This document shows positions 1-48,599 of a stretch of DNA of 64,000 nucleotides, piece after piece; position 1 is the stretch's first letter, and each line of letters opens with the position of its first letter. The translations under genes were made by a program, and so were the position numbers. The notes below the pieces were generated by a model. That model had not been told where the DNA came from and did no database searches. It saw only the letters and a list, made by a program, of their open reading frames with translations. The stretch covers positions 1 to 64,000 of the IMG/VR virus record IMGVR_UViG_3300027710_000022, one strand, 5' to 3'. Source of the stretch: a virus. Lineage: Duplodnaviria > Caudoviricetes.

Positions 1-269
1 CGTCCACCACCGAACGAACCACCTTTGTGAACATCAAGTCCAGTTTGTTGGGACACTTTGAATAATAGTTCCATCATTTGGTCATTCTGATATGGTAAAT
101 AACCATTGGAGTGAATACCCAAGATTGTACTATCATCCTCACGAACGATACCAATTTTATCAGGGATAATAATTCCTGACGAAGTTTGAAGTCCTTCGGT
201 ACGGACTTTCCAATTTAAACCAGTTCTATCCAAGAACTGATTAACCCGATTGTTTTCTACGATTTCCAT
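1..269 (-). CDS. DUF932 family phage/plasmid protein (3' truncated by window edge)
   Basis: Manual translation MEIVENNRVNQFLDRTGLNWKVRTEGL...IGIVREDDSTILGIHSNGYLPYQNDQMMELL...GGSFGGG fits the DUF932 N-terminus; host-type promoter at 307-314. Confidence 0.65.
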   Translation of the reverse strand, partial: MEIVENNRVNQFLDRTGLNWKVRTEGLQTSSGIIIPDKIGIVREDDSTILGIHSNGYLPYQNDQMMELLFKVSQQTGLDVHKGGSFGGG

Positions 270-523
270 CTGTTTAATTTTTATGGTTTAATAAATGATT
301 GTATGACAAAGATAAATTAATCTGGGATATAATCCAAATTTATTTTTAAGAAATATTAATTATTTTTTTCCTCCTGATCCACCTGTGATCAGAGCTCCCA
401 ATATTACTGGGTAATACTTGACGATACCCCAGTAATTTTACGGGACGATCAGGTCGAGAAAAATTCTTGGACATAAAAAAACCCCCGACAGAATCGGAGG
501 TCTTATTAAAGTAGGTGGTTTTA

Positions 524-844
524 TTACACCAACAAATCTTGTACTGAATGTTCGGAAGTTTTTTCATCCCACACATCATCATTCCAATCCTCACCGACTT
601 GGGTACAAGTCTTGTAGAAAATTTCAACAACACCATTCTCGATGGTGACAACTCCTTCGGTTCTCTCGTTGATAGGAATCAAATCCTTTTCAACAAGGAA
701 TAGAAGTACGAGTTCGTACTCCAAAAATTGGTCGGTGTTCTCCGACTCAATGTATTCAACTTGTCCTTGGAAATCCAAGGAGAACTCAAACTCCACATTA
801 GAGTTTAGAGTTTTTTCGATTTGGGAAGTGAACAAAGTGTCCAT
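524..844 (-). CDS. Acidic hypothetical phage protein
   Basis: 106-aa ORF between its own promoter and terminator. Confidence 0.75.
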   Translation of the reverse strand: MDTLFTSQIEKTLNSNVEFEFSLDFQGQVEYIESENTDQFLEYELVLLFLVEKDLIPINERTEGVVTIENGVVEIFYKTCTQVGEDWNDDVWDEKTSEHSVQDLLV

Positions 845-1014
845 AGTGTGTAGGTCTATTGGTTAGTAGACAATACAAATATAAAAAAGAAATTCCGTTT
901 TACAATACATTTATGAAAAATTATTTTACTTTTTTTCTGACCCTGGTAATCCAAATACATTACTGGGTAATACAAGAATTCCAGTTCGGGGACCTACTGG
1001 AAATTAATACTGGG

Positions 1015-1097
1015 TAAACTCCCCAGTAAAGTAATACGTCCGAACCGTCGCGTCGGAAATTCTAACACACACTATAAACTCCCCAGTAAAGTAATAC
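1015..1097 (+). repeat. Exact 23-nt direct repeat TAAACTCCCCAGTAAAGTAATAC, two copies 60 nt apart
   Basis: Copies at 1015-1037 and 1075-1097. Confidence 0.9.
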
Positions 1098-1184
1098 ACC
1101 TAACCGGTCGAGGACCTGAGGTATGAACAAAAAAAAAGGATAGTCTTTCGACTACCCTTCTTCACCTTTCCAACCTATGTATTT

Positions 1185-1745
1185 CTACACAACTACTCCT
1201 TCTAAATGTTGTAATACGGACTTACCTTCATCCCAACAATCGTCCTCACTATAATAACTTCCACAACATTCAACTAATGTTTTGTGTTCGTGACCTTTAT
1301 TACAAGTTTCAATTTCATAAACTTTGTATTGATAAACTTCACCCGTTAAGTATTCATCATAAATTCTAACTTCACTATTCATAATCAAACTTAACTTTTC
1401 TTCACCCCTTTCAAATTCTTTACCACACATTAAGTTCAATTGTTTTTCACTTATGAAAACCCAACCAACTTGTCCACTATCCCATTGACAACTGAACGGA
1501 CTTGTGGATATAGTTATACCACTATGGTCGTACATATACAAAGGTTTAATCAAAAGGACTTTATGGTCACTTTCAATTTGTGACTTCAATTCATCCCAAC
1601 TATCAAAGTCAACACTTTTGTAGTCAGTTTTGTCACCAATATCGTACCTTTTGTGAAAACAAATCATTGTAGTAATGTTATCCCATTCGGTACGAGGATT
1701 CATTGGGTCGTTATCGTGTTCGACAACTAATTCATACTTTCTCAT
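1185..1745 (-). CDS. Conserved phage hypothetical protein (NPRxxWDN...LYMYDHSG...WDSGQVG type)
   Basis: Recognisable motif string; start moved to ATG 1745 because the track ATG at 1769 lies inside the promoter. Confidence 0.75.
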   Translation of the reverse strand: MRKYELVVEHDNDPMNPRTEWDNITTMICFHKRYDIGDKTDYKSVDFDSWDELKSQIESDHKVLLIKPLYMYDHSGITISTSPFSCQWDSGQVGWVFISEKQLNLMCGKEFERGEEKLSLIMNSEVRIYDEYLTGEVYQYKVYEIETCNKGHEHKTLVECCGSYYSEDDCWDEGKSVLQHLEGVVV

Positions 1746-2028
1746 TTTAATGTTTTTTAGTGTACACAAATATACAACTAATTCGGTTATATCAAAAATA
1801 AATTTGTTAAAATATTGTCAAAGAATTTTGGATACCCGTGAAGGTAAAATAATTTACTGGGATGTATGACAAGGATACCCCAGTAAATTTTCGACTCTGT
1901 CTTCCTGATGATGAGGTTCTTTTTGTATTACCCAGTAATAAAAACAGATGGACGGAGATGGAGAAATTTTTGAACAAAAAAAATCCACCCCTTTCGGAGT
2001 GGACTTCGGTTAGTAGGGGAACTAACCT

Positions 2029-2559
2029 TTAAATGAACTCGTAAATGTTTCCGTTGTATGACACTTCTTTAACATTATCCAAACTTACCGATAAGGTTTG
2101 TACCTTTCTTTCACTCGGTTGATTTTTGTAATTGTTTGACTTCACCAACCAACTATCAAATTCAGTTTGGTCAATCGGGTTTCCTTCAAACTCAAATTCA
2201 ACTTGTGGTTTCACTTCCATAAACCACTCGTATTGAAGATAAAACTTTTTTGTGTTTTCGTTGTAAAGGATAACATTGTTGATGTGGTTACCAACTTTGT
2301 TTTGACCTACTTGAAAATTACCTTCACCACCTTCCCTCACTTCGTTACCTTTTACTCGTTGTTCGTACTCACCACCGATTAAAACTCTAACCGATTTTTT
2401 CTTCACAACTTTTCCATAATACTTGTTCAAACCTTCTCTACCACCTTTGTTCATTTTAGGGATAGTGTGTGTAACTAAATTCATAAATGTAGGATTTTTA
2501 ACCTCGTTCATCATTTTGATAAACTCACCTTGTAGGATTTTGAAACGATTTTTTTTCAT
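2029..2559 (-). CDS. Hypothetical phage protein
   Basis: 176-aa ORF with promoter and terminator. Confidence 0.75.
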   Translation of the reverse strand: MKKNRFKILQGEFIKMMNEVKNPTFMNLVTHTIPKMNKGGREGLNKYYGKVVKKKSVRVLIGGEYEQRVKGNEVREGGEGNFQVGQNKVGNHINNVILYNENTKKFYLQYEWFMEVKPQVEFEFEGNPIDQTEFDSWLVKSNNYKNQPSERKVQTLSVSLDNVKEVSYNGNIYEFI

Positions 2560-2975
2560 AACATTATTTTGTTTATTTTTTCAATACTCTAAATTACAAC
2601 TTTTATCCAATATAACAAAATATATTTAATATTTTTTTATCCACATTCTTAATTTTTTTTTGTGGACAAATTGTGGATAACTTTTTTCCCCGTGATCCAG
2701 AAAATAAATTACTGGGGAAACGAAGAAAAAAAAAATTACAAGGTTGTAAGAAATAAAATACTGGGGTATAAAGAAAAAATCTGTGTTCGATGTGTTTGAT
2801 ATTACTGGGGTGTAATACGTTTACCCCAGGAAACTTTTCCTGGAGGATCTGATCCAATGGTCGTTGTTATGTAATACCCAGTAATTTTTTCCTGGAGACT
2901 CAGGTTCCACTCCTTCTTCTAAACAAAAAACCCCCGAACTAAAAGTCCGAGGGTTTCAAATAAATTGTGTCGAGT

Positions 2976-3188
2976 CTAATACATTATTTCAAACTTATCT
3001 TCTTCGGGAATTACGGATAAACTTCTTCCGTTATCCCAATTCACACCATAATAACCCATATCATCAACGAATACAATCGTACCCATTGTGTTAGGTTGAA
3101 TAGGGTTTGTCTTTGGGTCATCATCCATTAGAATCAATCTAATTCTTTTACCGACCATTTCTTTTCTGATTTTTAATAGTTCAAACAT
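2976..3188 (-). CDS. DUF4314 family protein
   Basis: GKRIRLILMDDDP...GTIVFVDDMG...VNWDNGRSLSVIPEEDKF. Confidence 0.7.
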   Translation of the reverse strand: MFELLKIRKEMVGKRIRLILMDDDPKTNPIQPNTMGTIVFVDDMGYYGVNWDNGRSLSVIPEEDKFEIMY

Positions 3189-3199
3189 TGTTAAAGATT

Positions 3200-3400
3200 T
3201 TATTCGTTAGAAAATAACATTTCCATTAAACCAATAACGACGGGATGAATGTCTTTATTGTTTGAATCTCCCCATTGTTTGACTTCCCCATTTTCTTGAA
3301 TGTGAAAGTTTGTCTTTGTACCATCGGTTAGTTTAAACCAACCCTTAACTTCATTGTTCCCAATGAAATTCATTTTTTGTGTTGTGATTTGTGTAGTCAT
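3200..3400 (-). CDS. Hypothetical phage protein
   Basis: ATG 3400 lies downstream of the promoter at 3422-3429. Confidence 0.65.
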   Translation of the reverse strand: MTTQITTQKMNFIGNNEVKGWFKLTDGTKTNFHIQENGEVKQWGDSNNKDIHPVVIGLMEMLFSNE

Positions 3401-3752
3401 TTTGTTTAGATGTTTAGTACCCAAATATACAACTATTATTTTTATATACAAACATTATTTGTTAAAATTTTGTGAAAGAATTTTTCCCGTGTTGTAACAT
3501 GTAATTGATTACTGGGGTAATACGAAGATGTGGTTTTCCCGTCGCACGGTGTTCACATTTACTGGGGTGTTCACGTTCCGTGAACATTGGTAATACGTGA
3601 ACATAGAATATATCCCAGTAATTTATTAGCATGTGCATGTGCTGCTACGGCGCCTGGTGTTGTGCTGCATTAGTAATACGCACAAAAAGAAAAACCCCCA
3701 CCATTTCTGATGAGGGCTCACTTACTAACCACACTATTAAACAAAACTATTG

Positions 3753-3899
3753 TCACATATCGTACGCAAATGTAGGGATAAAAAACCAAAACATAAAATA
3801 AAACGTTAAGCCAATTAGTATTACACCTAAAATGCCGTCCCAAAATTCCCTTCGGTCGTTTTTATACGTCCACACAAAGGTTTCTATAAATTCTTTCAT
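3753..3899 (-). CDS. Small single-TM membrane protein
   Basis: MKEFIETF...GILGVILIGLTFYFMFWFFIP; start abuts the stop of the upstream ORF. Confidence 0.55.
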   Translation of the reverse strand: MKEFIETFVWTYKNDRREFWDGILGVILIGLTFYFMFWFFIPTFAYDM

Positions 3900-3900
3900 C

Positions 3901-4260
3901 TTAATAAGAGTTTTGGTTATAGGTATCATACGTGTTATAATTTCTTCCACGATTGTTATCTCGATAGTCATTACGAGAAACACGTTGAGGATATCTCGGT
4001 CTTGGTACAAAGGAGTTTTCCATTTGTTCATCAATCGGTTGAACATTCCAATCTAAATCTTGTTGCTTGCATTCTGCCCAATGAATGTTATAAATCAACT
4101 CAAGTCGTTCAGTTACAATGATATAACTATTCTCGTTGAAGTGGATTTTGGTCACAGGCTCACCAGTGTTCTTGTCAATGATTTCATACATTGAATGTAC
4201 ATTTTGTGGATTCATTACCACCGGTCTTTTTGAATTTGAATTTGTCAGTTTGATTAACAT
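3901..4260 (-). CDS. Hypothetical phage protein
   Basis: 119-aa ORF with an R/N/Y-rich tail. Confidence 0.7.
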   Translation of the reverse strand: MLIKLTNSNSKRPVVMNPQNVHSMYEIIDKNTGEPVTKIHFNENSYIIVTERLELIYNIHWAECKQQDLDWNVQPIDEQMENSFVPRPRYPQRVSRNDYRDNNRGRNYNTYDTYNQNSY

Positions 4261-4290
4261 AACATTTAAATTTAAGAGTGAATAAATAAT

Positions 4291-4383
4291 TTATAACATT
4301 TGAAATGTAAAATATGATAAAAGAACCACCCAACAGATTGCACCAATAGTTAATGCACGTTTTTCGTTATTTGGTATTTTCAT
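4291..4383 (-). CDS. 30-aa putative membrane peptide
   Basis: Manual translation MKIPNNEKRALTIGAICWVVLLSYFTFQML; first ORF after the promoter at 4429-4436. Confidence 0.45.
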   Translation of the reverse strand: MKIPNNEKRALTIGAICWVVLLSYFTFQML

Positions 4384-4667
4384 TTTCTTTTTTTTTTAAT
4401 ATGATTAATTTGGTTTCTTTTGTTGATACAAAGATATAACAATTATATTAAACTTCCAAATTTATTTTAAGAAATTTATTAACCGGTCTGTTGATGGAAA
4501 GTTTATTACTGGGGAAAGTGTTGATGAGAAATCTGACGAAAAACAAAAATACGTTACTGGGATAATTCCCCAGTAAAAAGTCCGGATGGGAAGATGATGT
4601 AGAAATTCTTGGACAAAAAAAAGGGATATCATTTCTGATACCCCGATTTTCACTAACACCACAAATA

Positions 4668-4928
4668 CTAATCTTTATAAATGATTTTATTTGTAATGTC
4701 CTTTATAACCTCTCGTATTGTAATACCTTTAACTCCAACCTCAACCATACAACCATAAATGTTGGTTATGATAGTGTTAACGTGTTTAAAATCACGATAC
4801 ACTTCTCGGTTACCCCAACTATTACCTTTTTTAATTGTCAACCTTGTTGTTTCCCAACCTTTCTTATTGTTGACATATACTGATATGTTGAAATTAGTAT
4901 CGTAATACGTTCTTCTATATGTTTCCAT
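4668..4928 (-). CDS. Hypothetical phage protein
   Basis: 86-aa ORF coupled to the upstream gene. Confidence 0.65.
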   Translation of the reverse strand: METYRRTYYDTNFNISVYVNNKKGWETTRLTIKKGNSWGNREVYRDFKHVNTIITNIYGCMVEVGVKGITIREVIKDITNKIIYKD

Positions 4929-4929
4929 A

Positions 4930-5565
4930 TTATTTAGTTAAGATACCCAACTTGTGTAGGTCGTTGTAATTAAATGTGTTATTCAACTTCTTACCGAATA
5001 TGTTCTCGTATATGATTTCCATATTAACCTTATTCAATTTTGGTTTCTTAATACCATACTTCTCACAAAGTTTTACAAAGTTTCGTGTATCACAAACGAT
5101 TTCAACATTCCTACTTTCTTCGGTATTAAACCATTGATTACCTGACTTGGTACCCACACCACTTACTCCAATCATACAATACCTAAACCCACCACAATCA
5201 CCCCACCAATTATCTTTCATATCCATTTCATACACTTTGGTAATTAGAACAAAGATATTTTCATTGTTCCAATGTTTTCTAACTACGATTTGACCTTCAA
5301 CGAATTTTTTAGTGTCTTTCTTAACAATCTTTTTAGTTAATCTTTCCACTTCTTCCTCGTAGATTTTTCTTCTCATCATATAGTCATTAAACATATTATC
5401 CTTGATTTTATCCACTCTACTAACGAAAGAGGTTTCACTTTGATAATACTTGTTTTCTAACTCTTTGATTTTTTCTTTTGTCATTAAGATTTCATTTTCG
5501 AAATTTCTTAATGTTGTCGTTTCGTTTTTACGAGGTCGACCAACCTTTCTTTTTAATGTTTCCAT
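4930..5565 (-). CDS. Hypothetical protein with AT-hook-like N-terminus and coiled coil
   Basis: KRKVGRPRK followed by a heptad-rich segment. Confidence 0.7.
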   Translation of the reverse strand: METLKRKVGRPRKNETTTLRNFENEILMTKEKIKELENKYYQSETSFVSRVDKIKDNMFNDYMMRRKIYEEEVERLTKKIVKKDTKKFVEGQIVVRKHWNNENIFVLITKVYEMDMKDNWWGDCGGFRYCMIGVSGVGTKSGNQWFNTEESRNVEIVCDTRNFVKLCEKYGIKKPKLNKVNMEIIYENIFGKKLNNTFNYNDLHKLGILTK

Positions 5566-5901
5566 TGTTTATGTGTTTAGTGTCCACAAATATAAAACTA
5601 ATTTCATTATATACAAAATAAAAATGTTAATCTTTTCTAAAAATTTATTAACCGGTCACCGACGGGAACAATGTATTACTGGGGAAATGAAGATGAAGAA
5701 TTCCTCAAGAGGTGAAAACGATTTTACTGGGATGTAATACCCAGTAATGTAATACCGATGATCGTTATAAATTTCTTCAGACTCTGTGTTGAATATCCCA
5801 GTAATATGTCTTACCTGTCACGGTGTGTCGGAGATTCCTCCTCAAACAAAAATCCCCCGAAGAAAAACTCCGAGGGATTAAACAAGAATGGAAAAACAAA
5901 T

Positions 5902-6240
5902 CTAACTTTCAATCAACCTATCAATAACATCGACCAATTCATCAAACATAATGTCGTGGTCAATAGTTTCAACCACAACCATCATATCATTTACCAATCG
6001 GACTTCATAATAATCTAAACCATTTAGAGTAATCAATACGAATTGTTTCCACTTCGCACCCGTTACTTTCAATAGAATACCCTTAACATAACCATCTTCC
6101 GTTAAACCTATACGGATAAGTTTTGTAACACCCCAACACATAAAAGGAATACCTCCTTGTGTTTTGTACAATACATACATAGTATCACTGGGGTTAAACT
6201 CTCGTACCCCCAAACTGGAAAGTTTTTGTTCCGTTGTCAT
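5902..6240 (-). CDS. Conserved phage hypothetical protein
   Basis: 112-aa ORF ending DIMFDELVDVIDRLIE; own promoter and terminator. Confidence 0.75.
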   Translation of the reverse strand: MTTEQKLSSLGVREFNPSDTMYVLYKTQGGIPFMCWGVTKLIRIGLTEDGYVKGILLKVTGAKWKQFVLITLNGLDYYEVRLVNDMMVVVETIDHDIMFDELVDVIDRLIES

Positions 6241-6299
6241 ATCATTTTGTTTTTAGTGTATACAAATATAACACTATTACCAGTTTATTCAAAATTTTT

Positions 6300-6930
6300 T
6301 TTGTTAAACTTTTGTGAAGGTGAGGTTCCCTGAAAATATATTCCTGGGGTACACCCCAGTAAGGTTATTTGAAAAACTAGAAAATTTTTTTTATACGGGT
6401 TTTTCATCCCAGTAATTTTATTTCAATTTTATAATTTTTTTCTCTGTATTTTTTTTACCCCAGTAAGGTTTTTTTGAAAACCAGGAAAATTTTTTTTTTT
6501 CTTCGTAAAAATAATATTACTGGGTTGTTGAAATAAAAAAACTCAAAAAAAATTTGGATGTACTGGAATTAGTAAAAAATCGGAGAAAAGTAAAACTATA
6601 TTACTGGGGTGACGGAATGAATATTTTTTTTTTAGAATATAAAGATAAAAATTTTTTTTGTTGTTTACAAACTTTTTTTATTACTGGGGTAACTTTTTCT
6701 GATCCCCGGACGATCATCCAAAATAAATTACTGGGGTGTGCAGTTGAGTCGTACACCCGGATGTCGTGAAAAACATTCCTGGGGTAACAATCCTAAAATG
6801 TGCGCAGTAAAAAGTCTTAAATGTGCGCAGTACCCCAGTAAACAAAAACAACGATCAGGAAAAAAATCAGGTTTCCTTCCAAAACAACCCAGTAATATTT
6901 CCCTGATGATGACCCGGTAACGGGTTGTGG
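6300..6930. other. Non-coding block with long A/T tracts, nine motif copies and direct repeats
   Basis: Imperfect ~40-nt direct repeat at about 6354-6392 and 6457-6500; AAATGTGCGCAGTA at 6797-6810 and 6819-6832. Confidence 0.65.
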
Positions 6931-6995
6931 TAGAAATAAAAAACCCCCACCGAATTAACGATGAGGGTTTGGGGGAGGGGGAAACGACTAATCTT

Positions 6996-7202
6996 TTATT
7001 TTGAATCTGTGTTAGGAACACTAATTAATATTAACAATACACCGAATAGGAATACCATAGTCCATAAGGTACCTATCCAATTAAAACTACTATCAAGTTG
7101 AATACTCCCGTCATCAACCAAAAAACCGAGGAATAGGAGTAGGGAACATACGGACACCAATGTCATTCCGACATTAAACATTCTGTTATAAGTTTTTTTC
7201 AT
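6996..7202 (-). CDS. Small two-TM membrane protein
   Basis: MKKTYNRMFNVGMTLVSVCSLLLFLGFLV...LWTMVFLFGVLLILISV; start placed after the promoter at 7221-7228. Confidence 0.65.
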   Translation of the reverse strand: MKKTYNRMFNVGMTLVSVCSLLLFLGFLVDDGSIQLDSSFNWIGTLWTMVFLFGVLLILISVPNTDSK

Positions 7203-7289
7203 ATCATTTGATTTAGAAGACAAAGATATAACAATAGTTTCATTATACAAAATATAATCGTTAATGTTTTCCTAATAGATGTGGGACCT

Positions 7290-7500
7290 CAGGATACACA
7301 GGGGGATTATTACTGGGTAGACCTCCCTATACCCATAGGTGGGGGGTCCCCCCTCCCCGTATCCCCCCTTATATAGGGGGTATTTTGACATCCTAAAAGG
7401 GGGGTCAATGCCGTAACAGAAATTTTTCCGGAAAAAAAGTTGAAAAATCGACTTTATACCCCTAAACTGAAAAAAAAATTTTCCAGAATTTTTTGGGAAT
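7290..7500. other. G/C-run-rich non-coding junction at the coding-strand switch (candidate genome end, pac site or origin)
   Basis: GGGGGGTCCCCCCTCCCCGTATCCCCCCTTATATAGGGGG and similar runs in an otherwise AT-rich genome; genes diverge from this point. Confidence 0.45.
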
Positions 7501-7511: not shown

Positions 7512-8939
7512 ATGAAATTATTAGACATTGTATATGAATCTGTTGTTGACGAGGGGTTAAAAGTCACTCAAGACGAATTCATGCAAAGAGTTAAGCGTAA
7601 ATTCAAGAATGATTTAGTTACACTACCTAATGGTAAAAAAGTTCCTCGTTATGACTTTTCCAAAACAGTTTATAAAGGTGCTAGAGTTCCTATAACTTTT
7701 TATTGTAACAAAATAGGTAAGGACGGTAAACCACATGGTACACAACAAGTGGGTGCTTTAAACAACATGTTAAATAGAAACGATGGTTGTAAATTGTGTG
7801 GTGCTGAGAACACATCATCTCGTTTTGGTCATAATCAAGATAAGTTTATAAAAAAAGCGGAAGAAAAATGGGGAAAGGGTAGATGGGACTACTCTAACTT
7901 AAAATATACAGGGAGTGAAGAACCTGTAGATATTATCTGTCACAGAAAAGATGAAAATGGTGTGGAGCATGGACCATTTAGAATTAATAGAGCACAGTGG
8001 TTCTTAACAAAGAATAATCCCATGTATTGTAAACAATGTTCCAATGAATATCGTGCAAATTCAAGAACTGAAAAATCACGTACCCGTGAGGAGTTTATAA
8101 AAAAGGCTGAAGAAGTAAACGGTAAGGGTACATACGATTATAGTCAGATGATTTATAAACAAGGTAAGGGTAAGGAACCTGTAAAAAATATCATATGTCA
8201 TAAAAAAGATGAGAATGGTGTGGAACACGGTTTGTTTAATGTGAAACTGGCACAAAGTTTAATTGCCCAAGAGAGACCTGTAGGTTGTCCAAAGTGTGGA
8301 AAACTTAAGAAAACAGAAAGAGTATCATATAAAAAAGATGAATGGATTGAATTTTCTCGTAGTATACATAAATTGAAAGATGGAACACCAAAATATACCT
8401 ACGAGAAAATTGATTTGATAAAATCACCCTATATACAATCCCTTGATTATGTGATTCTAAACTGTCCAAAAAAAGGACATGGTGATTTTTCTATTAAATC
8501 TGGTGCTCATTTATATAGTAAATCAGGTTGTCCCAAATGTGCAACATCCAAAGGTGAGGATGCTGTGGCACAATATCTTTATTCTTTAGGTTATGACACA
8601 ATAAAGGATAAAAGATTTGATGACTGTACAAACGCTTGGAAAGGAATTCAATGTTACAGATATAAATTTGATGCATATTGTCCAGAACTAAACACCATAT
8701 TTGAATTTGATGGTGGATTTCATTTTATAAGAACCTTTAAACAGACCGAGGAACATTTTCAATTACGTGTAATGGATGATAAATACAAAAACAACTATTG
8801 TAAGAGGAAAGGTATCAAATTGGTGAGAATTGCATATACTGATATGAAAGATATCAAAGGACAGATTGATAAAGCATTAAAGAGTAATAAGATGTTATGG
8901 TTATCTGATAATTACCCTAAGAAGGGTTGGAACAGTTAG
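7512..8939 (+). CDS. DUF723-type Zn-ribbon repeat protein with C-terminal Vsr/DUF559-like nuclease (homing-endonuclease-like)
   Basis: Repeats of EFI..A....G.YDYS...Y...V.IIC...HG.F...GCxxC; C-terminal SKGE...KFDAYCPELNTIFEFDGGFH...D..KN.YC...I.L.RI. Confidence 0.75.
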   Translation: MKLLDIVYESVVDEGLKVTQDEFMQRVKRKFKNDLVTLPNGKKVPRYDFSKTVYKGARVPITFYCNKIGKDGKPHGTQQVGALNNMLNRNDGCKLCGAENTSSRFGHNQDKFIKKAEEKWGKGRWDYSNLKYTGSEEPVDIICHRKDENGVEHGPFRINRAQWFLTKNNPMYCKQCSNEYRANSRTEKSRTREEFIKKAEEVNGKGTYDYSQMIYKQGKGKEPVKNIICHKKDENGVEHGLFNVKLAQSLIAQERPVGCPKCGKLKKTERVSYKKDEWIEFSRSIHKLKDGTPKYTYEKIDLIKSPYIQSLDYVILNCPKKGHGDFSIKSGAHLYSKSGCPKCATSKGEDAVAQYLYSLGYDTIKDKRFDDCTNAWKGIQCYRYKFDAYCPELNTIFEFDGGFHFIRTFKQTEEHFQLRVMDDKYKNNYCKRKGIKLVRIAYTDMKDIKGQIDKALKSNKMLWLSDNYPKKGWNS

Positions 8940-9442: not shown

Positions 9443-9548
9443 GATTTATAAATATTAACGGTAAATTTTTTAGAATATGAGTACACAATATTCGTAAAAT
9501 AAACTACATTTTAAAAAAACATGGACATAGATGTCCGAATTATATATT

Positions 9549-10964
9549 ATGAAAATCAACGAACTTTACGAAACGGTAATTAATTATCAAACACAGAACA
9601 GGGTATTCTTTCAGAATGCCGAGAATTGGGACATTAGAAGATTGGGTGAAATGTATAAAGAAGGTGAACTAATCTTGCAGGATTGGTTTCAACGAGACTA
9701 TTGTTGGAACAAACCTCAGATATGTTCATTAATGCACACCTTGCTACACACCCCAACTTTATTACCCGAGATTGTACTCATCAGAATCGGAGACAAGTAC
9801 CACGTGGCTGACGGTCACCAAAGACTTCGTAGTATTTTATTGGAAGTTTTAACCAATCCCGATTTCAAGTACTTTTCAAAGGAACTTACCGAATCAACCA
9901 AGTACTTTAACGTGGGACCTAAGAATGCAGAACTATGGAAGGAGTTTAGTAGGGAGATTGAAAGAAAAACTATTACAGTTAAAGTTATCATCAATAATAA
10001 CTTGGATGAAAATGAATTACGTAACCTCAGTTCTTATGTCTTTAAGAAATGGAATAATGGTACAGCTTTGAGTCCTGCTGAAAAGAGAGGAGCATTTCCA
10101 TCCGATTTAAATATCAATATCGTTCAAAGACTTAAAAATAACATCCCAGTGGAGAAACAAATATCTCTATTGGTTTCAAGAACGTCAAGTAAGAATAAGT
10201 TTAATGAGTTGGTGGAAAAGGTTTTCTTTCACTTCATGAATCCAAATGCACTACATGACCCAAATGACGATGGGTATAGTACCATACATTCCTATTCCGA
10301 AGATGAATACAGTGGTAAATTTAAAACCTTCTATAAGTTGTTTAACGTTATGACGGATACGGTTTATAACTATACCAACTTCAATGGACATTTTGGACCA
10401 GGTTCTTGTTGTATGAGAGATGTTCTTACCTTTGTGAATGATTTATATCTTAAGAACGAAATTAAATCCTTTGATGAGTACAGTTGGTACCTTACATCTG
10501 TTCTTGATACTCTACATACAACTTATTACAATAACAAACGATTTGACGATTACCATGGAGGTAACTACGAAATAATTGATATGGAAATCAATAACACTTG
10601 GTTTAAAGGTTTCTTCTGCCATTTCGGTAAAGGTCAAGATCATAAATTCGAAAATCGTAGAACATTCCTATATGACAATAGAGAGTTGTTTGGCAAACTT
10701 ATTGAGTACGACCACCAAAGATTGTTTACACAGGTACAGAAACAAATAAAATATATTGAACAAAATAGAATCTGTGTTGGATTCGATGGTGGCGGTTGCA
10801 GATACCACGGGACCGAACCTTTGTCATATGGTGAAATGGAAGGTGACCATATCGTTGAACATACCAATGGAGGAAAAACGGTTATCGAAAACCTTCAAAT
10901 GTTATGTATGGAATGCCATTCCGAAAAAACAAAACAATTCAATACAAAAGAAATTGTTGAATAA
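9549..10964 (+). CDS. DUF262 plus C-terminal HNH nuclease (GmrSD-like)
   Basis: FQRDYCW and DGHQRL in DUF262; GDHIVEHTNGGKTVIENLQMLCMECH in HNH. Confidence 0.8.
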   Translation: MKINELYETVINYQTQNRVFFQNAENWDIRRLGEMYKEGELILQDWFQRDYCWNKPQICSLMHTLLHTPTLLPEIVLIRIGDKYHVADGHQRLRSILLEVLTNPDFKYFSKELTESTKYFNVGPKNAELWKEFSREIERKTITVKVIINNNLDENELRNLSSYVFKKWNNGTALSPAEKRGAFPSDLNINIVQRLKNNIPVEKQISLLVSRTSSKNKFNELVEKVFFHFMNPNALHDPNDDGYSTIHSYSEDEYSGKFKTFYKLFNVMTDTVYNYTNFNGHFGPGSCCMRDVLTFVNDLYLKNEIKSFDEYSWYLTSVLDTLHTTYYNNKRFDDYHGGNYEIIDMEINNTWFKGFFCHFGKGQDHKFENRRTFLYDNRELFGKLIEYDHQRLFTQVQKQIKYIEQNRICVGFDGGGCRYHGTEPLSYGEMEGDHIVEHTNGGKTVIENLQMLCMECHSEKTKQFNTKEIVE

Positions 10965-25291: not shown

Positions 25292-25525
25292 ATTGTTATA
25301 AATAGTGTAATACAAAATAAAAATTTAAACTTTTTTAATATATCCTATCTATTATCCCAAATTAATTTTTTAATGACAAATAGTCATGTGAAATTTAACC
25401 ATTTTGGGTAACAAGTTCTTATTTATTTGTGTATGGAAAAAAATAATATAATCGATTCCAAACTTTCTTATATGGTTATTTTTCCGTATATTTTACAAAA
25501 CAATAAATTCTTAAACAAAAAACGA

Positions 25526-28500
25526 ATGAAAAAAACAATTCTAAGTTTACTACTTTTATTAGTGGTAGGGTTTTCTGGGTTTGCTCAAGTAACAACCTCG
25601 ACGATTTCCGGTATCGTAAAAACCGAAAAGGGTGAGACATTACCAGGTGCCACCGTTCAAGTAGTACACGTACCAACAGGAACAAAGTACGGAGCAAGTA
25701 CAAATTTATCTGGTAAATATGTGGTTCCTGCAGTGAGAGTAGGTGGACCGTACAAAGTAATAGTATCATTTGTTGGTTTTAATCAAAACGAACAATCAGA
25801 TGTTAATACTTCTCTTGGTGTTACAACAAACGTAGATGTTGTGTTAGTTGAGTCGAGCACATCATTAAAAGAAGTTGTGGTAACAGGTGGAGGTAGAAAT
25901 AGTACTTTCTCAAAAGAAAGAACTGGAGCATCACAACAATTCAGTAGACGAGAATTACAGGCAATTCCAATTACAGGTGCAAGAACTATCGATGGTATCA
26001 CAAAATACAACCCATTCGGTAATGGTTCTTCATTTGGAGCTCAAGATTCTCGTTTGAATAATTTTACAATCGACGGTTCTCAATTTAACAACAACTTCGG
26101 TTTAGGTTCATCAGCACAAGCAGGTGGTAGAACAGGGGCTTCCGCCATATCGTTAGACGCGATTGAGCAATTGCAAGTGAACGTAGCACCATTCGATATT
26201 CGTCAAAGTGGATTTGTTGGTGCAGGTATTAATGCTGTAACAAGAAGTGGTTCAAACGAAATCGAAGGTTCGGTATACCAAACACAAAGAGATAATAGTT
26301 CTCGTTATGTTGGTGACAATGCAAGAGGTACAACGGTAACCGCATCTAAATTTGATGAGAAGGTACAAGGGTTCCGATTAGGAGCACCAATCATTAAGAA
26401 CAAATTGTTCATCTTTGGTAACTATGAATCAATTGATAGAACCGAACCAGGTACAACTTGGATTTCAACAGGTTCTCCTTTAACAGGTTCACAAGTTAGT
26501 AGACCAACTTTCCAACAATTGACTGACCTTTCTAAATTTATGAAAGACAAGTTTAATTATGAAACGGGTCCGTTCGAAGGATATTCTAACACTAACACTT
26601 CCAATAAATTCTTGGTACGTTTAGATTGGAATATTAATGATAAAAATAAATTAACAACTCGTTATGTGTTCCATAATTCAGAAGCACAAATTGGAATTTC
26701 AAATTCACAATCTGCGGGTTTCGGTAATAGAACTCAAAACATCAATGCAATGTCTTTCCAAAATAGTGGATATACTATTCAGGATAACACACGTTCATTG
26801 GTAATGGAATTAAACTCAAAGTTCTCAAACACTTTACATAACAACTTAATTGTTTCATATGATAAACAAATTGAGAATAGAGGTTACATGTCTCAAATGT
26901 TTCCAACGATTGATATTAAAGAGGGTTCAACAACATTAACATCTGTTGGTTTTGACCCTTTCACTCCTGGTAACAAATTAGATTATAATACATTTAACAT
27001 TACAAACAACTTAACAAAGTACATGGATAAACATACTTTAGTGGGTGGTTTTAACTTTCAAATGTATCAATCAAATAATTTATTCTTTCCAGCTTCTAAT
27101 GGTGTTTACATCTTTAATAGTTTGGCAGATTTCTACACCGCGGCTAATCAATCATTGGCAAATGGTGGTAAACCATCAGCATTCGCACCAGCTCGTTTCC
27201 AATTCCGTTATTCGGCATTACCCGGAGCGATCGAACCAATGCAAACTCTTAAATCTAATAGATTAGATTTGTATTTACAAGATGAATATAATGCAACTAA
27301 AGATTTAGTTTTAACATTTGGTGTTAGAGCGAACATTATTGGATTTGATAATACTGCTTTGGAGAACCCAACAATTACCGCAATGACATTTGCAAATGGT
27401 GAGAAGTTTAATACGGGTACAATGCCAAAAACACAAGTTCTATTAGAACCTCGTTTAGGATTCAACTGGGATGTTAAGGGTGAGAAGAAAACACAAGTAC
27501 GTGGCGGAACAGGTGTATTCACAGGTCGTCCTCCATATGTGTTCTTATCTAACCAAATTGGTAACAATGGTGTGTTAACAGGATTTATCGATGTTAGTGG
27601 AGCCGCAGCTGCACAATACGGATTCACTGCGGACCCTAACAAATACTTTATCCCATCAACCCCAACTTTACCATCAACATTTGACTTGGCGTTAACTGAC
27701 CCTAATTATAAATTTCCACAAGTATGGAAAACAAATTTAGCGGTTGACCAAAAATTACCATTCCTTGGTTTAGTCGGTAGTGTTGAATATTTGTATAATA
27801 AAACAATCAATGCTGTTCATTATTATGAGGCTAACTTACAAAATCCGGTGGGTACATTGGGTGGTGTTGATAATAGACCTCGTTTTGGTGGTACTGATGC
27901 AACAGTTAGAGTAAATAATAGTGTTTCAAGAGCGGCTGTCCTTACAACTAAAGACGGTGCATATCACGAATCATTAACATTGAAATTAGAAAAACCAGTT
28001 CAAAAAGGATTTTGGGGTTCAATTGCTTGGACAACAGCAAACTCAAAAGACTATATGAGTGCGGGTTCAATCGCAAGTGGTTCTTGGCAATCAGCATTAT
28101 CAGTTAATGGTAATAACGATTTAGGATTATCATTCGCAGATGCGTTTGTTAAAAATAGATTTGTTGGTTTATTAGGTTACAGAATTGATTATGGTAAAGG
28201 TTTAGGTGGGGCAACTACATTTACTTTAGGTTATGTGGGACAACAATCTAATCCATTCTCATACATCGCAGCAGGTGACTTAAACGGTGATAGAGTAAAC
28301 AACAACGATTTAATCTTCGTACCTAACAAGGGTTCAGATATCAAATTCGCAAGTTTAACCGCAGGTGGTAAAACATTTACTGAAGCAGAACAACAAGCCG
28401 CATTCGATGCATTTATTGGACAAGATGAATACTTGTCAACTCGTAGAGGTCAATATGCTGAAAGAAATGGTGGATTATTACCATATCTACATAGACTTGA

Positions 28501-28810
28501 TTTCTCAGTTGCACAAGATGTGTTTGTTAAAATTGGAGGTAAAAGAAATTCGTTCCAAATTAGAATGGATATTCTTAACTTTACAAATATGTTGAATAAT
28601 GATTGGGGAGTTTCTCAAAGAGCAACAGCACCTCAATTGTTAAACTTTGTAAGTAGAGATGCTGTTACAAATGTACCAACATATAGATTAGCAACTCAAA
28701 GATTGACAGATGGTTCTACTATTTTAGCTAGAGATTCTTATCAATACAATTCATCAGTATTTGATGTATGGAGTGCTCAATTAGGTATCCGATATATCTT
28801 CGGTAGATAA
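25526..28810 (+). CDS. TonB-dependent receptor, Oar-like, with N-terminal carboxypeptidase-regulatory-like domain
   Basis: Signal peptide; LPGATV...G..YG..T...G.Y....RVGGPY; plug NN.TIDG...NN.FG...SLDAIEQ.QV..APFD.RQSGF.GA.INAVTRSG.N; C-terminal QLGIRYIF. Confidence 0.9.
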   Translation: MKKTILSLLLLLVVGFSGFAQVTTSTISGIVKTEKGETLPGATVQVVHVPTGTKYGASTNLSGKYVVPAVRVGGPYKVIVSFVGFNQNEQSDVNTSLGVTTNVDVVLVESSTSLKEVVVTGGGRNSTFSKERTGASQQFSRRELQAIPITGARTIDGITKYNPFGNGSSFGAQDSRLNNFTIDGSQFNNNFGLGSSAQAGGRTGASAISLDAIEQLQVNVAPFDIRQSGFVGAGINAVTRSGSNEIEGSVYQTQRDNSSRYVGDNARGTTVTASKFDEKVQGFRLGAPIIKNKLFIFGNYESIDRTEPGTTWISTGSPLTGSQVSRPTFQQLTDLSKFMKDKFNYETGPFEGYSNTNTSNKFLVRLDWNINDKNKLTTRYVFHNSEAQIGISNSQSAGFGNRTQNINAMSFQNSGYTIQDNTRSLVMELNSKFSNTLHNNLIVSYDKQIENRGYMSQMFPTIDIKEGSTTLTSVGFDPFTPGNKLDYNTFNITNNLTKYMDKHTLVGGFNFQMYQSNNLFFPASNGVYIFNSLADFYTAANQSLANGGKPSAFAPARFQFRYSALPGAIEPMQTLKSNRLDLYLQDEYNATKDLVLTFGVRANIIGFDNTALENPTITAMTFANGEKFNTGTMPKTQVLLEPRLGFNWDVKGEKKTQVRGGTGVFTGRPPYVFLSNQIGNNGVLTGFIDVSGAAAAQYGFTADPNKYFIPSTPTLPSTFDLALTDPNYKFPQVWKTNLAVDQKLPFLGLVGSVEYLYNKTINAVHYYEANLQNPVGTLGGVDNRPRFGGTDATVRVNNSVSRAAVLTTKDGAYHESLTLKLEKPVQKGFWGSIAWTTANSKDYMSAGSIASGSWQSALSVNGNNDLGLSFADAFVKNRFVGLLGYRIDYGKGLGGATTFTLGYVGQQSNPFSYIAAGDLNGDRVNNNDLIFVPNKGSDIKFASLTAGGKTFTEAEQQAAFDAFIGQDEYLSTRRGQYAERNGGLLPYLHRLDFSVAQDVFVKIGGKRNSFQIRMDILNFTNMLNNDWGVSQRATAPQLLNFVSRDAVTNVPTYRLATQRLTDGSTILARDSYQYNSSVFDVWSAQLGIRYIFGR

Positions 28811-31493: not shown

Positions 31494-31742
31494 ATGGCAT
31501 CAGACGCATATAAAGAAATGCAAGCATCGAAAGATACACCAGGTTCAAGTCAACCAAAACACAAACAACTGATAAAAATGTTAACATTTAGGGTTGTTCC
31601 AGCATATTATAAGGAAATTGAGAAGGTTGCTAACAACCAAGAGGTAACAGTATCTAAATTAATTAGAAATTACATTAAAGAAGGTATGAAGAGGGACGGT
31701 GAATTAACAGATAGAGAAGAAAAAACCTTTGGTTTAGAATAA
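31494..31742 (+). CDS. Ribbon-helix-helix DNA-binding protein
   Basis: MLTFRV....YKEIEKVA....VTVSKLIRNYI. Confidence 0.65.
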   Translation: MASDAYKEMQASKDTPGSSQPKHKQLIKMLTFRVVPAYYKEIEKVANNQEVTVSKLIRNYIKEGMKRDGELTDREEKTFGLE

Positions 31743-40213: not shown

Positions 40214-40582
40214 ATGGGATTTTTAAACGATGATAAGAAGGAAAAGTTAACTGCGTTCGTAAAGTTCGTAAAAGACCAATTGGAACTTAAAACAGTTCCC
40301 ACTATCTCGATTAAGGGTAATAGAGACGGTTTGAAAACGACCGCGAATTATGATTACACTAAAGAAAATAAGATAATCAAAGTTTATGGTAAAAACAGAG
40401 CTTTGGTTGACATTATGAGAAGTGTTGCCCATGAAATGGTCCACCACAAACAATTTGAAGATGGTCGTTTAGAACAAAGACCACCCGATATTGGGGGTGA
40501 GATTGAGGATGAGGCAAATGCAAAGGCGGGACAATACATTAAATTGTACGCAAAAGAAGACCCGACCATCTACGAGGATTAA
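40214..40582 (+). CDS. Zincin-like (HExxH) protein
   Basis: RSVAHEMVHHKQ...EDEANA.AG. Confidence 0.65.
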   Translation: MGFLNDDKKEKLTAFVKFVKDQLELKTVPTISIKGNRDGLKTTANYDYTKENKIIKVYGKNRALVDIMRSVAHEMVHHKQFEDGRLEQRPPDIGGEIEDEANAKAGQYIKLYAKEDPTIYED

Positions 40583-40583
40583 T

Positions 40584-41165
40584 TTATTTTTTATGTAATG
40601 TTATCTCTAAGTGAGATTCTATTGCTTTATCATATACATTGTTACCTAATTTAATACTGGTAAAAAATGATTGACTTGTTAATAACAATTCATTTGATGG
40701 CATGGCCCCATATGTATCTATTGAGAAGGTGTACCTTGTCTTGTTCCCAAAATAACCCCATTCCATGATTGTATTTTTAGTACAATATGTACAAGGAAAT
40801 CCAACAAATATATAGTCATCTTTAACCACATTTTGGTTGTTTTCATATATCCTAAGTTGGTTATACTCAAAAGACCATGTTGTTTTATTTACACTAAATC
40901 TTCTATCTATTGATGAATTTTTAAAATCTTGACTTAAAAGTAATGTACTATCATTAAGAATTTGTTTTACATAAAAATCACTAACCGAAGCCTCGTTTTC
41001 CGATACCACAGTTACGTGACTATTGAAATTTACCTTATCTATAACGACTTTAACTTTAACAACGTCCCATCTACCATTAAGATTTAACATTGGGTTACTC
41101 GGTAATTCATACTTTTCACACCCAAATAGGGTAAAAACAACTAAAATCGATATTAATTTCCTCAT
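40584..41165 (-). CDS. Lipoprotein, possibly lipocalin-like
   Basis: Lipobox LFGC followed by LNGRWDVVKV. Confidence 0.6.
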   Translation of the reverse strand: MRKLISILVVFTLFGCEKYELPSNPMLNLNGRWDVVKVKVVIDKVNFNSHVTVVSENEASVSDFYVKQILNDSTLLLSQDFKNSSIDRRFSVNKTTWSFEYNQLRIYENNQNVVKDDYIFVGFPCTYCTKNTIMEWGYFGNKTRYTFSIDTYGAMPSNELLLTSQSFFTSIKLGNNVYDKAIESHLEITLHKK

Positions 41166-41246
41166 GTCTTTATATTTTAAGCAAAAATAGGTATTTTTTG
41201 GTATATCACAATCAATTTCAAAGATTTTTTTAGGTATTTATATATT

Positions 41247-41504
41247 ATGAGAATGGTCATTAACGAAAAACAACTAAAATTGATACTATCAACTGAAAAT
41301 CAAGATATTGAAGAACAGGGGGAAGTTGCGACTGAACCATCCGCAGGCACATCAAGTACTCAAGCTGGAGGTCAAGGGTACCCTGAGGTTGGGAAATGGG
41401 AAAGTGGTATAGAGAGAGGTCCTGCCAATCAAATTGGGGTTACAAAATGGGCGGATATCGTTGGTGCAAATTTAAAAAGAGGTAAGTCCAATCCACTAAA
41501 ATAA
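41247..41504 (+). CDS. Leader-bearing small protein
   Basis: MRMVINEKQLKLIL; KWESGIERGPAN motif. Confidence 0.7.
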   Translation: MRMVINEKQLKLILSTENQDIEEQGEVATEPSAGTSSTQAGGQGYPEVGKWESGIERGPANQIGVTKWADIVGANLKRGKSNPLK

Positions 41505-41539
41505 GAAATTACAGATATTTATATAGAAATCAAAAAATA

Positions 41540-42748
41540 ATGGTTTATCAAACAAGAAATATAGTTACAGAATCCGAAAGAAATAGAATTAGTTCAATAC
41601 ACGGATTTGTACCAAAAAAACGTGATTATATATTTGAAGCATGTATCACGGTTGATGGAAGATACTTTGTTATACAAGACGAAGTGTTTGATATACAAGA
41701 ACAAAAAACAATAGGAAACGTTTGGGGTTCATTGGATGTTTTTAAAACAATTTTTGAGAGTGTTAAATTAGAAGATGAGGGTTATTCACAAATTAGAGAA
41801 AACGTCCTTTCTTTACCAATATTAGAATCACAACAAAACCTTTATGGTTTAAGGGACATATTACTTGAATTTAATTTTTTACAAGATACGTGGTTAGGTA
41901 GACAATTTAAAAGTGCTGGAGATAGTGTTGCCGATTTTGCAAAAACATCATATGAAGGTGTAAAGAAATTTGGACTTGCAGTATCTCAAGGGGATTGGAT
42001 GGGTATTTTAAAATTATTAGGTCAAGGTGTTAAATACGTTTTAAGAAAATTAAAAGATGCCTTATATAGTAATCTAGGTATGATTGTAGATGCGGTTTTA
42101 ATTGCAACAGGTGTTGGTGCAGGAGCGACAAAAATTGCTTGGGGATTGGTTGTAGCTTTAGACCTTTATCAATTAATAAGTGATGATTGGCCAGAAGAAG
42201 AAAAAAATGATCCGTTTTGGTTAAAATGTTTATTCTTAGGTTTTGATATATTAGGATTTACAACTGCAGCCGCGGCTGCTAAAGCGGCTAAAGCGGGAAT
42301 TATGCCAATTAAAACACTTGTAAGTAATCCAGCAAAAATTGCACAATATTTTGAAAAGAACCCAAAGGTTAAAGGAATGATAACCTCAATGGTTGACGGA
42401 ATAAAACAAGTGCCAGCCTTATTACAATCGGTAATGAAGACACTTTCGGCTAAATTTCCTAAAGGTGCAAGTTTTATTAACGGTGTTTTAGGTGGATTAA
42501 AAACAATATCAACAAGATTCACCGAAAGTTTACAGAGATTGTTAGGACAAAAAGCGGGTACAGGAGCATCTGCTGGTGCGAAGACCACTGGTATACTTTA
42601 CGGTTTTGAGAAAGCAATCGGTGGACACGAAACTAAAGGTGCGACTATGGCTACTAATAGTGCTGCTAATGGTATGGACCCTATGGTATCGAACCAATAT
42701 GCTGAATTAGTTAGAACTAAATATAATGGTAAAGATCCATGGGATTAA
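41540..42748 (+). CDS. Putative virion/ejection protein with hydrophobic helices
   Basis: IVTESERNRI leader-like segment; G/A-rich hydrophobic stretches (LGMIVDAVLIATGVGAG; AAAAAKAAKAG). Confidence 0.55.
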   Translation: MVYQTRNIVTESERNRISSIHGFVPKKRDYIFEACITVDGRYFVIQDEVFDIQEQKTIGNVWGSLDVFKTIFESVKLEDEGYSQIRENVLSLPILESQQNLYGLRDILLEFNFLQDTWLGRQFKSAGDSVADFAKTSYEGVKKFGLAVSQGDWMGILKLLGQGVKYVLRKLKDALYSNLGMIVDAVLIATGVGAGATKIAWGLVVALDLYQLISDDWPEEEKNDPFWLKCLFLGFDILGFTTAAAAAKAAKAGIMPIKTLVSNPAKIAQYFEKNPKVKGMITSMVDGIKQVPALLQSVMKTLSAKFPKGASFINGVLGGLKTISTRFTESLQRLLGQKAGTGASAGAKTTGILYGFEKAIGGHETKGATMATNSAANGMDPMVSNQYAELVRTKYNGKDPWD

Positions 42749-42770
42749 ATTTAAAATTTAAAATTTATAT

Positions 42771-44591: not shown

Positions 44592-44592
44592 T

Positions 44593-45237: not shown

Positions 45238-45369
45238 TAAGATATTTATATGTAGAGTTTAATTGGTTTGGTCGCCATTAAACGATAATACTTATAAAAC
45301 GAAAAGGAGGTGTTCTAAATCTCGACAAAGGGTCTTCGGACCTTTTGCTCGTTTATATGGGTACCAAAT

Positions 45370-45395
45370 AAAAAACCCATCCGAAGATGGGTTTA
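45370..45395. terminator. Intrinsic terminator at the tmRNA 3' end
   Basis: AAAAAACCCATC CGAA GATGGGTTTA. Confidence 0.75.
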
Positions 45396-45805: not shown

Positions 45806-45810
45806 ATATT

Positions 45811-45855
45811 TTAAAGAACTTATACAAATGTAGATGAAAAAGGGTTAAAAAACAA
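45811..45855 (-). promoter_or_regulatory. Host-type promoter plus boxA-like element upstream of tmRNA
   Basis: TTTG-N19-TACATTTG, then AGTTCTTTAA. Confidence 0.7.
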
Positions 45856-45889
45856 ATTTTAACCCTTAAATTCCTATATGTGTAATTAT

Positions 45890-48589: not shown

Positions 48590-48599
48590 TATTTTTAAA

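Follow-up and report, generated by a model that had tools for sequence, protein, structure and literature searches.

An oriented, lineage-specific DNA word tiles the gaps between early gene cassettes of an uncultured phage: candidate polar boundary sites

One end of the phage DNA studied here, a 64-kb stretch comprising positions 1-64,000 of IMG/VR record IMGVR_UViG_3300027710_000022 (hereafter the window), carries a run of small early genes whose intergenic gaps hold many copies of one short word, TACTGGG (or CCCAGTA), and the question raised by this locus is what such a word could be doing there. Counting on both strands gave 33 copies (17 on the plus strand and 16 on the minus strand), all of them within 405-7317 and none in the remaining 56.5 kb, whereas dinucleotide-preserving shuffles of the window contained a mean of 4.9 copies and a maximum of 12. 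A preliminary description, made from the sequence alone, had noticed about 33 copies confined to the early array and had proposed an exact k-mer count as a check; the count bears out both the number and the confinement, far above the shuffles. It had also placed the start of the array at 404, which has to be revised, because relatives carry an 18-19 kb word block and the window therefore opens inside the array. Almost all copies (31/33) extend to TTACTGGG.

The gaps in question lie between predicted intrinsic terminators and predicted Bacteroidota-type promoters, and it is from these predictions only that they are called untranscribed. Across bases 1-7250 each cassette runs from a Bacteroidota-type promoter (TTTG, 18-19 nt, TAnnTTTG) through between one and three small genes to a hairpin-plus-T terminator; as predicted, the cassettes are self-contained, each with a host sigma-A promoter, its gene or genes and an intrinsic terminator. 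The eight terminator-to-promoter gaps contain 2, 4, 3, 4, 3, 3, 4 and 9 copies of TACTGGG, with one more at the array edge (7311), matching the two to nine per spacer first described. Read in gene direction, the order is terminator, TTACTGGG copies, CCCAGTAA copies and promoter. The left/right arrangement of orientations claimed beforehand holds perfectly in seven of the eight gaps, where every plus-strand copy lies to the left of every minus-strand copy (a chance of approximately 1/7776 by our own count), but fails in the 620-bp gap at 6325-6940, which is arranged - - - + + + + - -. The TTAC-N3-GTAA palindromes and GTAATAC flanks mentioned in the same description are real.

No nucleotide match for the window was found among deposited phages. 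Relatives do exist in IMG/VR, one of which (G008) is a genome of 335,630 bp rated 100% complete, and because of this relative we read the window as a fragment of an uncultured freshwater Bacteroidota jumbo phage of probably ~335 kb. In the 131-kb relative G001, 67 of 70 word copies fall in one 19-kb early block, and in the 69-kb relative G002 all 64 fall in one 17.6-kb stretch (40335-57942). The DNA was found in freshwater and subsurface metagenomes from 17 studies. The window carries tRNAs and a transfer-messenger RNA and, at 25427-28810, a gene for a TonB-dependent-receptor-like outer-membrane barrel. Sediminibacterium and other Chitinophagaceae have genes with 67-70% identity to it, and this gene, which G008 lacks, is the best clue to a host that we can only infer.

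A composite site under selection

A position profile of 204 distinct copies revealed conservation beyond the word itself, in the form AAWANA-TTACTGGG-D-W-R-W. On the tail side, the tetranucleotide GATC has its peak at 13-16 nt before the word: the 4-nt bin from -16 to -13 contains 47 of 282 distinct sites, and the tail-side interval contains 62 compared with 15 in the mirror interval. On the other side, the palindrome GTAWTAC peaks at +7, +8 and +10 from the word start. In the window, G001 and G008 its density within the arrays is 10-30 times that outside them, with 17 copies in the array region against eight in the rest of the window, and nine control palindromes of the same composition showed no array enrichment in these three sequences. 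The whole site is polar, composite and ~33 bp long, reading GATC, N11-12, an AT-rich stretch, TTACTGGG(G) and GTAWTAC, and the word TTACTGGG makes up its lineage-specific half.

In alignable gap DNA from five relatives, word columns were 98.8% identical compared with 91% for the other columns (Fisher 1e-18). The relatives are not independent samples and local alignment favours conserved islands, although the direction of the result is nevertheless clear: the TTACTGGG word is under purifying selection. Some short sites differ in number between the early genes and their gaps. GATC is absent from 4,070 nt of early coding sequence, but occurs ten times in 2,055 nt of gaps within 345-7420 (4.9/kb, compared with 0.65/kb genome-wide), CCWGG occurs zero and eight times respectively, and CCGG once and seven times. 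Several of the gap CCWGG copies (five by eye) are one-mismatch variants of the word, TTCCTGGRG.

Spacing and lineage-specific words

Neighbouring words of the same orientation lie 44-60 bp apart, with modes at ~48 and 55 bp, and never closer; head-to-head pairs are 11-15 or 20-24 bp apart, and tail-to-tail pairs are rare and separated by at least 59 bp. The simplest account of this spacing would be an occupant of ~45-55 bp per unit sitting mostly over the AT-rich, GATC-bearing tail side, so that tails cannot overlap and heads can abut.

The array is also locked to the terminators. In the window, the first sense word starts 37-43 nt past the T-tract of seven of the eight terminators, the sole exception being inter-cassette region 5, with 62 nt, which is also the only gap where GpC is common. 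The corresponding distances are 37-45 nt for 13 of 14 terminators in G001 and 32-44 nt for six of eight in G008, which uses another word. As the sequences between T-tract and word fall into several unrelated classes, this reflects a constraint on distance and not merely shared descent. One element, TGTCCAAGAATTT (or TGTTCAAAAATTT), is shared between T-tract and first word at 440-475, 4590-4620 and 1950-1978 on the minus strand, and is lacking from other terminators. The link to the next promoter is looser, with the last word 69-89 nt (mostly 79-81 nt) upstream of the -7 box. The edge of the composite unit, taken as GATC at -16, falls ~21-29 nt past the T-tract; judging by polymerase footprints, the front of a polymerase would reach to about this point when its active site lies on the T-tract. 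The window, G001 and G008 thus all have an oriented site at a fixed short distance past a T-rich release element, as polar terminator elements do. Together with the purifying selection and the longer, asymmetric composite site, the strict spacing and the terminator locking support the DNA-level role that had been proposed at the outset.

The complete related genome G008 shows the same layout and the same GTAWTAC with a different, alignable word, TGTTTGGCAA. It has a single TTACTGGG in 335 kb, whereas 28 of its 33 genome-wide copies of TGTTTGGCA lie in its early block (22.3-40.4 kb), where the consensus is ATATTGTTTGGCAA, direct copies stand 52-54 bp apart and the last of them lies right against the G/C-rich edge element that also bounds the array of the window. 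Approximately ten of 14 positions align between ATATTACTGGGGTA and ATATTGTTTGGCAA. Each of G001 and G008 retains one or two copies of the other's word beside its own: the lone TTACTGGG of G008 lies 6 nt from one of its own words, and at the array edge of G001 a TGTTTGGCA pair is interleaved with two TTACTGGGG copies. Further arrays use GTTTGGCA (L139 and L158) or the extended GTAATACGAAT (L162 and L164). In the lineages with words other than TTACTGGG the copies are nearly all sense-oriented, and abundant mirror-image copies are peculiar to the TTACTGGG lineage. Two more distant IMG/VR phages that share an early gene, L140 (251 kb) and L145 (124 kb), have array words of their own that are arranged differently: each cassette has a single divergent pair (20-29 bp) of AAAACTAGACAAAATC in the one case and a single sense copy of AAACTAACTAATATGAA in the other. 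As the layout differs, we did not count them as the same system.

Words are also present where there are no gaps to hold them. At 60.7-65.9 kb of G001 the genes are tightly packed and 11 single copies occur, all sense; eight of these lie inside unrelated open reading frames (ORFs), in at least two reading frames, and three in short intergenic stretches. The gene-dense part of G008 shows the same sense-oriented pattern with its own word. In these regions a DNA-level or RNA-level selection overlies the coding sequence, and orientation matters.

A possible boundary function and its alternatives

Our preferred reading, which we hold tentatively, is that the words are docking sites of a probably phage-encoded DNA-binding factor and serve as polar boundaries between early cassettes. 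A sequence-specific factor, most likely encoded by the phage and co-evolving with the word, would dock on each unit and cover ~45-55 bp, mainly on the AT-rich tail side, and the first unit would meet host RNA polymerase at or just after termination. The units would then act as polar boundaries, stopping polymerase that reads through or that slides on after termination and so insulating each cassette, with the mirror-image units of the TTACTGGG lineage shielding the next promoter from the opposite side. Single-molecule work makes such a role plausible: DNA-bound proteins stop both elongating RNA polymerase and polymerase sliding after termination, up to half of Escherichia coli polymerases slide on in this way, and bound LacI blocks the sliding (PMC11364550). 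An array of sites for a DNA-binding protein was one of the four possibilities offered by the preliminary description, and of those four it fits best. More speculative, and in our judgement on the unlikely side, is the full version of this scheme, in which a lineage-specific boundary protein, co-evolving with its site, would stand ~40 nt behind every early terminator (and, in this lineage, as a mirror image before the next promoter) and stop read-through or sliding host polymerase, as a bacterial-virus counterpart of the protein-bound terminators of eukaryotic ribosomal RNA (rRNA) genes.

Several points weigh against a boundary function. No binding protein for the composite site was found, and the factor may be host-encoded. 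The terminators and promoters of the cassettes are predicted ones, and the relatives that repeat the pattern are not independent of each other. The eight sense copies inside ORFs in the tightly packed far block of relatives are awkward, since a strong roadblock would truncate those transcripts, unless the factor acts weakly on elongating polymerase or appears only at a later stage of infection. The mirror-image half of the model does not generalize, since such copies abound in the TTACTGGG lineage alone.

The search for a reader protein covered several candidates. Pfam scans of 20 array proteins found no DNA-binding domain. The small ribbon-helix-helix (RHH) protein at 31494-31742, which had been suggested as the binder, cannot read the word, because its DNA-reading beta-strand is identical in phages of both word types; its helices are identical as well, and it might possibly read the shared GTAWTAC. 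The product of g6a (4930-5565, minus strand) belongs to a basic family of 211 amino acids in which an AT-hook (KRKVGRPRK) lies at the N terminus, a helix spans 60 residues and the C-terminal domain is beta-rich, with an invariant IGVSGVGTK; it matches no Pfam family and was modelled with a predicted local distance difference test (pLDDT) score of 74. Its divergence tracks the word, with identities of at least 83% in phages with TTACTGGG, 62% with GTTTGGCA and 59% with GTAATACGAAT, the diverged homologue loci being taken from metagenome contigs. Although g6a is present in arrays of three word types, it was rejected as an obligatory reader, as it is missing from the complete G008 and from the L139 array. 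The gene behind the largest cluster, g7 (5902-6240), encodes an acidic protein with no DNA-binding signature and was also set aside. Subtracting the proteomes of G001 (TTACTGGG) and G008 (TGTTTGGCA) picked out no single reader; the comparison is too noisy because approximately half of the ORFs have no counterpart.

Comparison of cassette order among relatives, which had been recommended as a check, uncovered both indels and reordering among the window, L001-L004 and metagenome strains, with junctions at words. In inter-cassette region 6 of L001, an additional cassette separates a sense word from the CCCAGTAA that follows; a word pair of L003 encloses an additional unit of 82 bp, a small cassette has been added at a word in L002, and metagenome contigs contain many inter-cassette joints and one strain with a different cassette order. 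A 131-bp stretch with a small ORF in the window (4287-4417) is skipped in contigs of three runs, in L001 and in L004. The same short words stand in every gap, and so they are also where cassettes are gained, lost and reordered. This shuffling looks like a by-product of recombination between short repeats, because no recombinase was found in G008, G001 or G002 and breakpoints also occur in promoters and terminators.

That the words are instead an operator array for temporal control strikes us as fairly improbable. In this account an early or middle phage regulator would bind the words and switch the early block off or up, for example by spreading from the word toward the promoter, and would not act at terminators. 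It would explain the fairly constant distance from the last word to each -7 box, the AT-rich tail of promoter-proximal copies facing the promoter, the limitation of words to the early block though other host-type promoters exist elsewhere in the genome, and a lineage specificity like that of operators with their repressors; however, the terminator link is tighter (9-nt range) than the promoter link (20-nt range), the copies of other lineages are nearly all sense behind terminators with none facing a promoter, and sites at approximately -90 and beyond do not overlap the promoter. We think it doubtful, and more so than an operator array, that the words capture or read a host DNA-binding protein, with phage lineages matched to the factors of different hosts. 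The failure to find a phage reader and the difference in word between phages that may infect different hosts speak for it, but in five candidate host genomes the word occurs 26-93 times per 1.9-5.6 Mb, at or below its reversed-word control (a count that a small regulon would escape), phages of both word types came from similar lake samples and the host is itself inferred. The words might also be promoters or promoter boxes, read either by an RNA polymerase of the phage, as T7 promoters are, or by a host polymerase that the phage redirects, as at the T4 MotA box. The word is asymmetric and lineage-specific, with related words in related phages (as in T7, T3 and SP6), and the gene-dense copies are sense-oriented, several of them 17-80 nt upstream of start codons. 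Nevertheless head-on pairs 11-15 bp apart would collide, the 204 copies have no conserved -7/-10-like element downstream of the word, and half of the copies in the window point away from any gene, which makes this a distant prospect; a search for a T7-type polymerase (PF00940) gave no hit, but its control was silent and it is uninformative.

Two further accounts, which we regard as very unlikely and to much the same degree, concern the movement of DNA. In one, words on the first-entering DNA would act as polarity signals, in the manner of FtsK-orienting polar sequences (KOPS) or SpoIIIE recognition sequences (SRS), for a translocase pulling in the 335-kb genome. The nearly uniform orientation in the gene-dense block and in other lineages, even inside ORFs, would suit this, as would the distinctive G/C-run element, possibly a genome end, at which the block stops; against this, half of the copies in the window are inverted, terminator locking and 50-bp tiling would not be expected, G001 reads through the contig ends of G008 and a genome end at the G/C run is hypothetical. 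In the other, which takes up the cassette-shuffling sites of the preliminary description, a recombinase would move cassettes by acting at TTACTGGG...CCCAGTAA pairs, and the words would serve as recombination sites or as cassette borders of the kind seen in integron attC sites and transposon ends. Inverted word pairs do flank every cassette, with 2-9 copies at each border, and the extra cassettes and unit of L001, L002 and L003 all join at words; metagenome contigs show many joints and an altered cassette order. However, tyrosine and serine recombinases (PF00589, Phage_integrase; PF00239, Resolvase) were not found in the complete G008 or in G001 and G002 with positive controls, other breakpoints lie in promoters and terminators, alignments naturally end at conserved islands, and several copies per border at 50-bp spacing with terminator locking are not needed. 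A parS centromere is disfavoured too, as no ParB was found (no PF02195 match over threshold in G008, G001 or G002; control positive). Least credible of all are the Chi-like protection signals and restriction-enzyme decoys of the same description. The word is an 8-mer on DNA that probably enters first, it has one orientation in the gene-dense part, and its core ACTGGG is the BfiI/BmrI site; but the word is neither over-represented nor visibly skewed in the candidate hosts, both of its orientations are found in the window, its copies keep to the gaps at set distances from terminators and a related phage replaces it with an unrelated-looking core. Nor is ACTGGG clearly avoided elsewhere, with five copies in 56.5 kb against ~9 expected by our own composition estimate.

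If the words are boundary sites as preferred above, these phages would add a dedicated and evolvable protein-boundary layer to their hairpin terminators, keeping packed and strongly expressed early genes independent, and would offer a natural system for the fate of RNA polymerase after termination (sliding, recycling and re-initiation), which single-molecule work has so far been the main means of studying. As related phages have swapped one word for another, they give a direct handle on the reader protein and on the code by which it recognizes its site. In addition, the arrays mark an early, probably anti-defence, gene block in a large group of uncultured Bacteroidota phages, which eases the finding of such blocks in metagenomes.

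The early block and its likeness to known systems

The features of the early block are collected in Table 1. The longest gap, inter-cassette region 8, includes an internal duplication of ~104 bp.

Table 1. Coordinates of words, promoters, terminators and genes in the early block of the window
Feature	Position	Strand	Details
Early cassettes	3..7250	-	Nine promoter-to-terminator units, 12-13 small genes
Early ORFs, first six	3-269, 524-844, 1185-1769, 2029-2559, 2976-3188, 3200-3451	-
Early ORFs, last six	3753-3899, 3901-4260, 4668-4928, 4930-5565, 5902-6240, 6996-7250	-
Inter-cassette region 1	307..504		-7 box of gene 3-269 at 307-314 (as CAAAnnTA); words 405(+), 428(-); GATC 379, 389, 447; terminator of next gene 478-504, minus strand
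Inter-cassette region 2	876..1163		-7 box 876-883; words 961(+), 1008(+), 1022(-), 1082(-); GTAATAC 967, 1031, 1091; terminator 1132-1163
Inter-cassette region 3	1767..2007		-7 box 1767-1774; words 1855(+), 1879(-), 1931(-); terminator 1980-2007
Inter-cassette region 4	2610..2957		Promoter ~2610-2625; words 2710(+), 2759(+), 2803(+), 2877(-); one-mismatch variants TTCCTGGRG; GATC 2693, 2845, 2850; terminator 2927-2957
Inter-cassette region 5	3422..3719		-7 box 3422-3429; words 3510(+), 3560(+), 3614(-); terminator 3692-3719
Inter-cassette region 6	4429..4644		-7 box 4429-4436; words 4507(+), 4555(+), 4569(-); terminator 4623-4644
Inter-cassette region 7	5587..5879		-7 box 5587-5594; words 5677(+), 5725(+), 5740(-), 5797(-); terminator 5851-5879
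Inter-cassette region 8, long AT-rich gap	6263..6970		-7 box 6263-6270; nine words 6355(-), 6408(-), 6459(-), 6518(+), 6602(+), 6682(+), 6729(+), 6834(-), 6888(-); terminator 6941-6970
Array edge	7221..7420		-7 box of last minus-strand gene 7221-7228; last word 7311(+)
G/C-homopolymer element, at array edge	7320-7405		Contains CCCATAGGTGGG; plus-strand genes from 7512 onward

G001 and G008 share the G/C-homopolymer element with CCCATAGGTGGG that is found at the array edge, and it is conserved there; it marks a point of divergent transcription (window 7320-7405, L010 1390-1500 and G008 40358-40450) and could be a genome end, an origin or a boundary. The opposite array edge of G001 has the reverse complement of the 12-mer CCCATAGGTGGG and a cluster of GC-rich hairpins (GGGGACCGAAGGTCCCC and similar). 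Directly adjoining the array of the window are two HNH/homing-endonuclease-like genes (7512-8939 and 9531-10964), where L001 has a different insert of 3.7 kb, and both genes may be missing from some strains, as one low-depth metagenome contig connects 7494 with 11200. A part of the early block that is absent from the window (G001 60.7-70.8 kb; L009 4750-11202; L129) encodes DUF932, GP88, L5 gp82-like and DUF4314 proteins, as well as an Api92-like protein called by eye from its NYWGCKWD motif, all families that we take to be typical of first-expressed or leading-region gene sets.

The composition of the block is unusual in that the early genes and most gaps (1-3500 and 4356-6055) are almost devoid of the dinucleotide GpC, which occurs twice in bases 1-3500 and eight times in 4,070 nt of early coding sequence, compared with 17 per kb in the rest of the window. 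The early proteins are therefore almost without alanine. The exceptions are 3544-4355 and part of the long gap, 6740-6827. A relaxation of GpC in the gaps was considered and proved wrong, as the GpC-free state extends over genes and most gaps. GpC depletion is not seen in G008, the word of which includes GC.

A literature search for the word itself returned only primer matches. Early cassettes of a comparable kind are known as promoter-early stem-loops (PeSLs) in the T4-type phages RB49 and phi1 (Arbiol et al. 2010, PMC2839356). PeSLs share with the array of the window hyperplastic early regions of small genes, a strong host-type promoter and a stem-loop terminator for each gene, and recombination between repeated regulatory units that shuffles genes among related phages; they are compact, with the stem-loop within or next to the promoter, and have no separate repeated word (PMC2839356). 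In the window, by contrast, 130-620 bp separate the terminator from the promoter, and a distinct composite site, polar and lineage-specific, is repeated along the gap. Gene gain, loss and replacement at units in plastic regions are common to both, whereas the compact promoter-terminator unit is peculiar to PeSLs.

The host-takeover module of phage SPO1 also has many strong host promoters and terminators, as does the early block here, and the HU-family protein TF1 has preferred sites there and affects early transcription. Unlike the words, TF1 sites are not a fixed repeated word, and a reading as HU/TF1-type sites is disfavoured, as no HU-family gene (PF00216) was found in the complete G008 while the control was positive. 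The omega RHH protein of pSM19035 binds heptads, direct and inverted, upstream of several promoters, and these resemble the words in being short, non-palindromic and present in both orientations. Omega heptads are contiguous, however, whereas the units of the window are ~50 bp apart and locked to terminators, and the reading strand of the phage RHH protein is the same across word types.

In the polar terminators of eukaryotic rRNA genes (Sal-box/TTF-I and Reb1/Nsi1), a bound protein stops polymerase coming from one direction. Like the array, these terminators have repeated, oriented protein-binding words set a short and constant distance beyond a T-rich release element, with several copies per gene end and a further copy upstream of the next promoter. 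They belong to another domain of life and act on another polymerase, and the likeness is one of possible mechanism only, with no homology implied. Within these limits, the protein-bound polar terminators of eukaryotic rRNA genes offer the closest working analogy.

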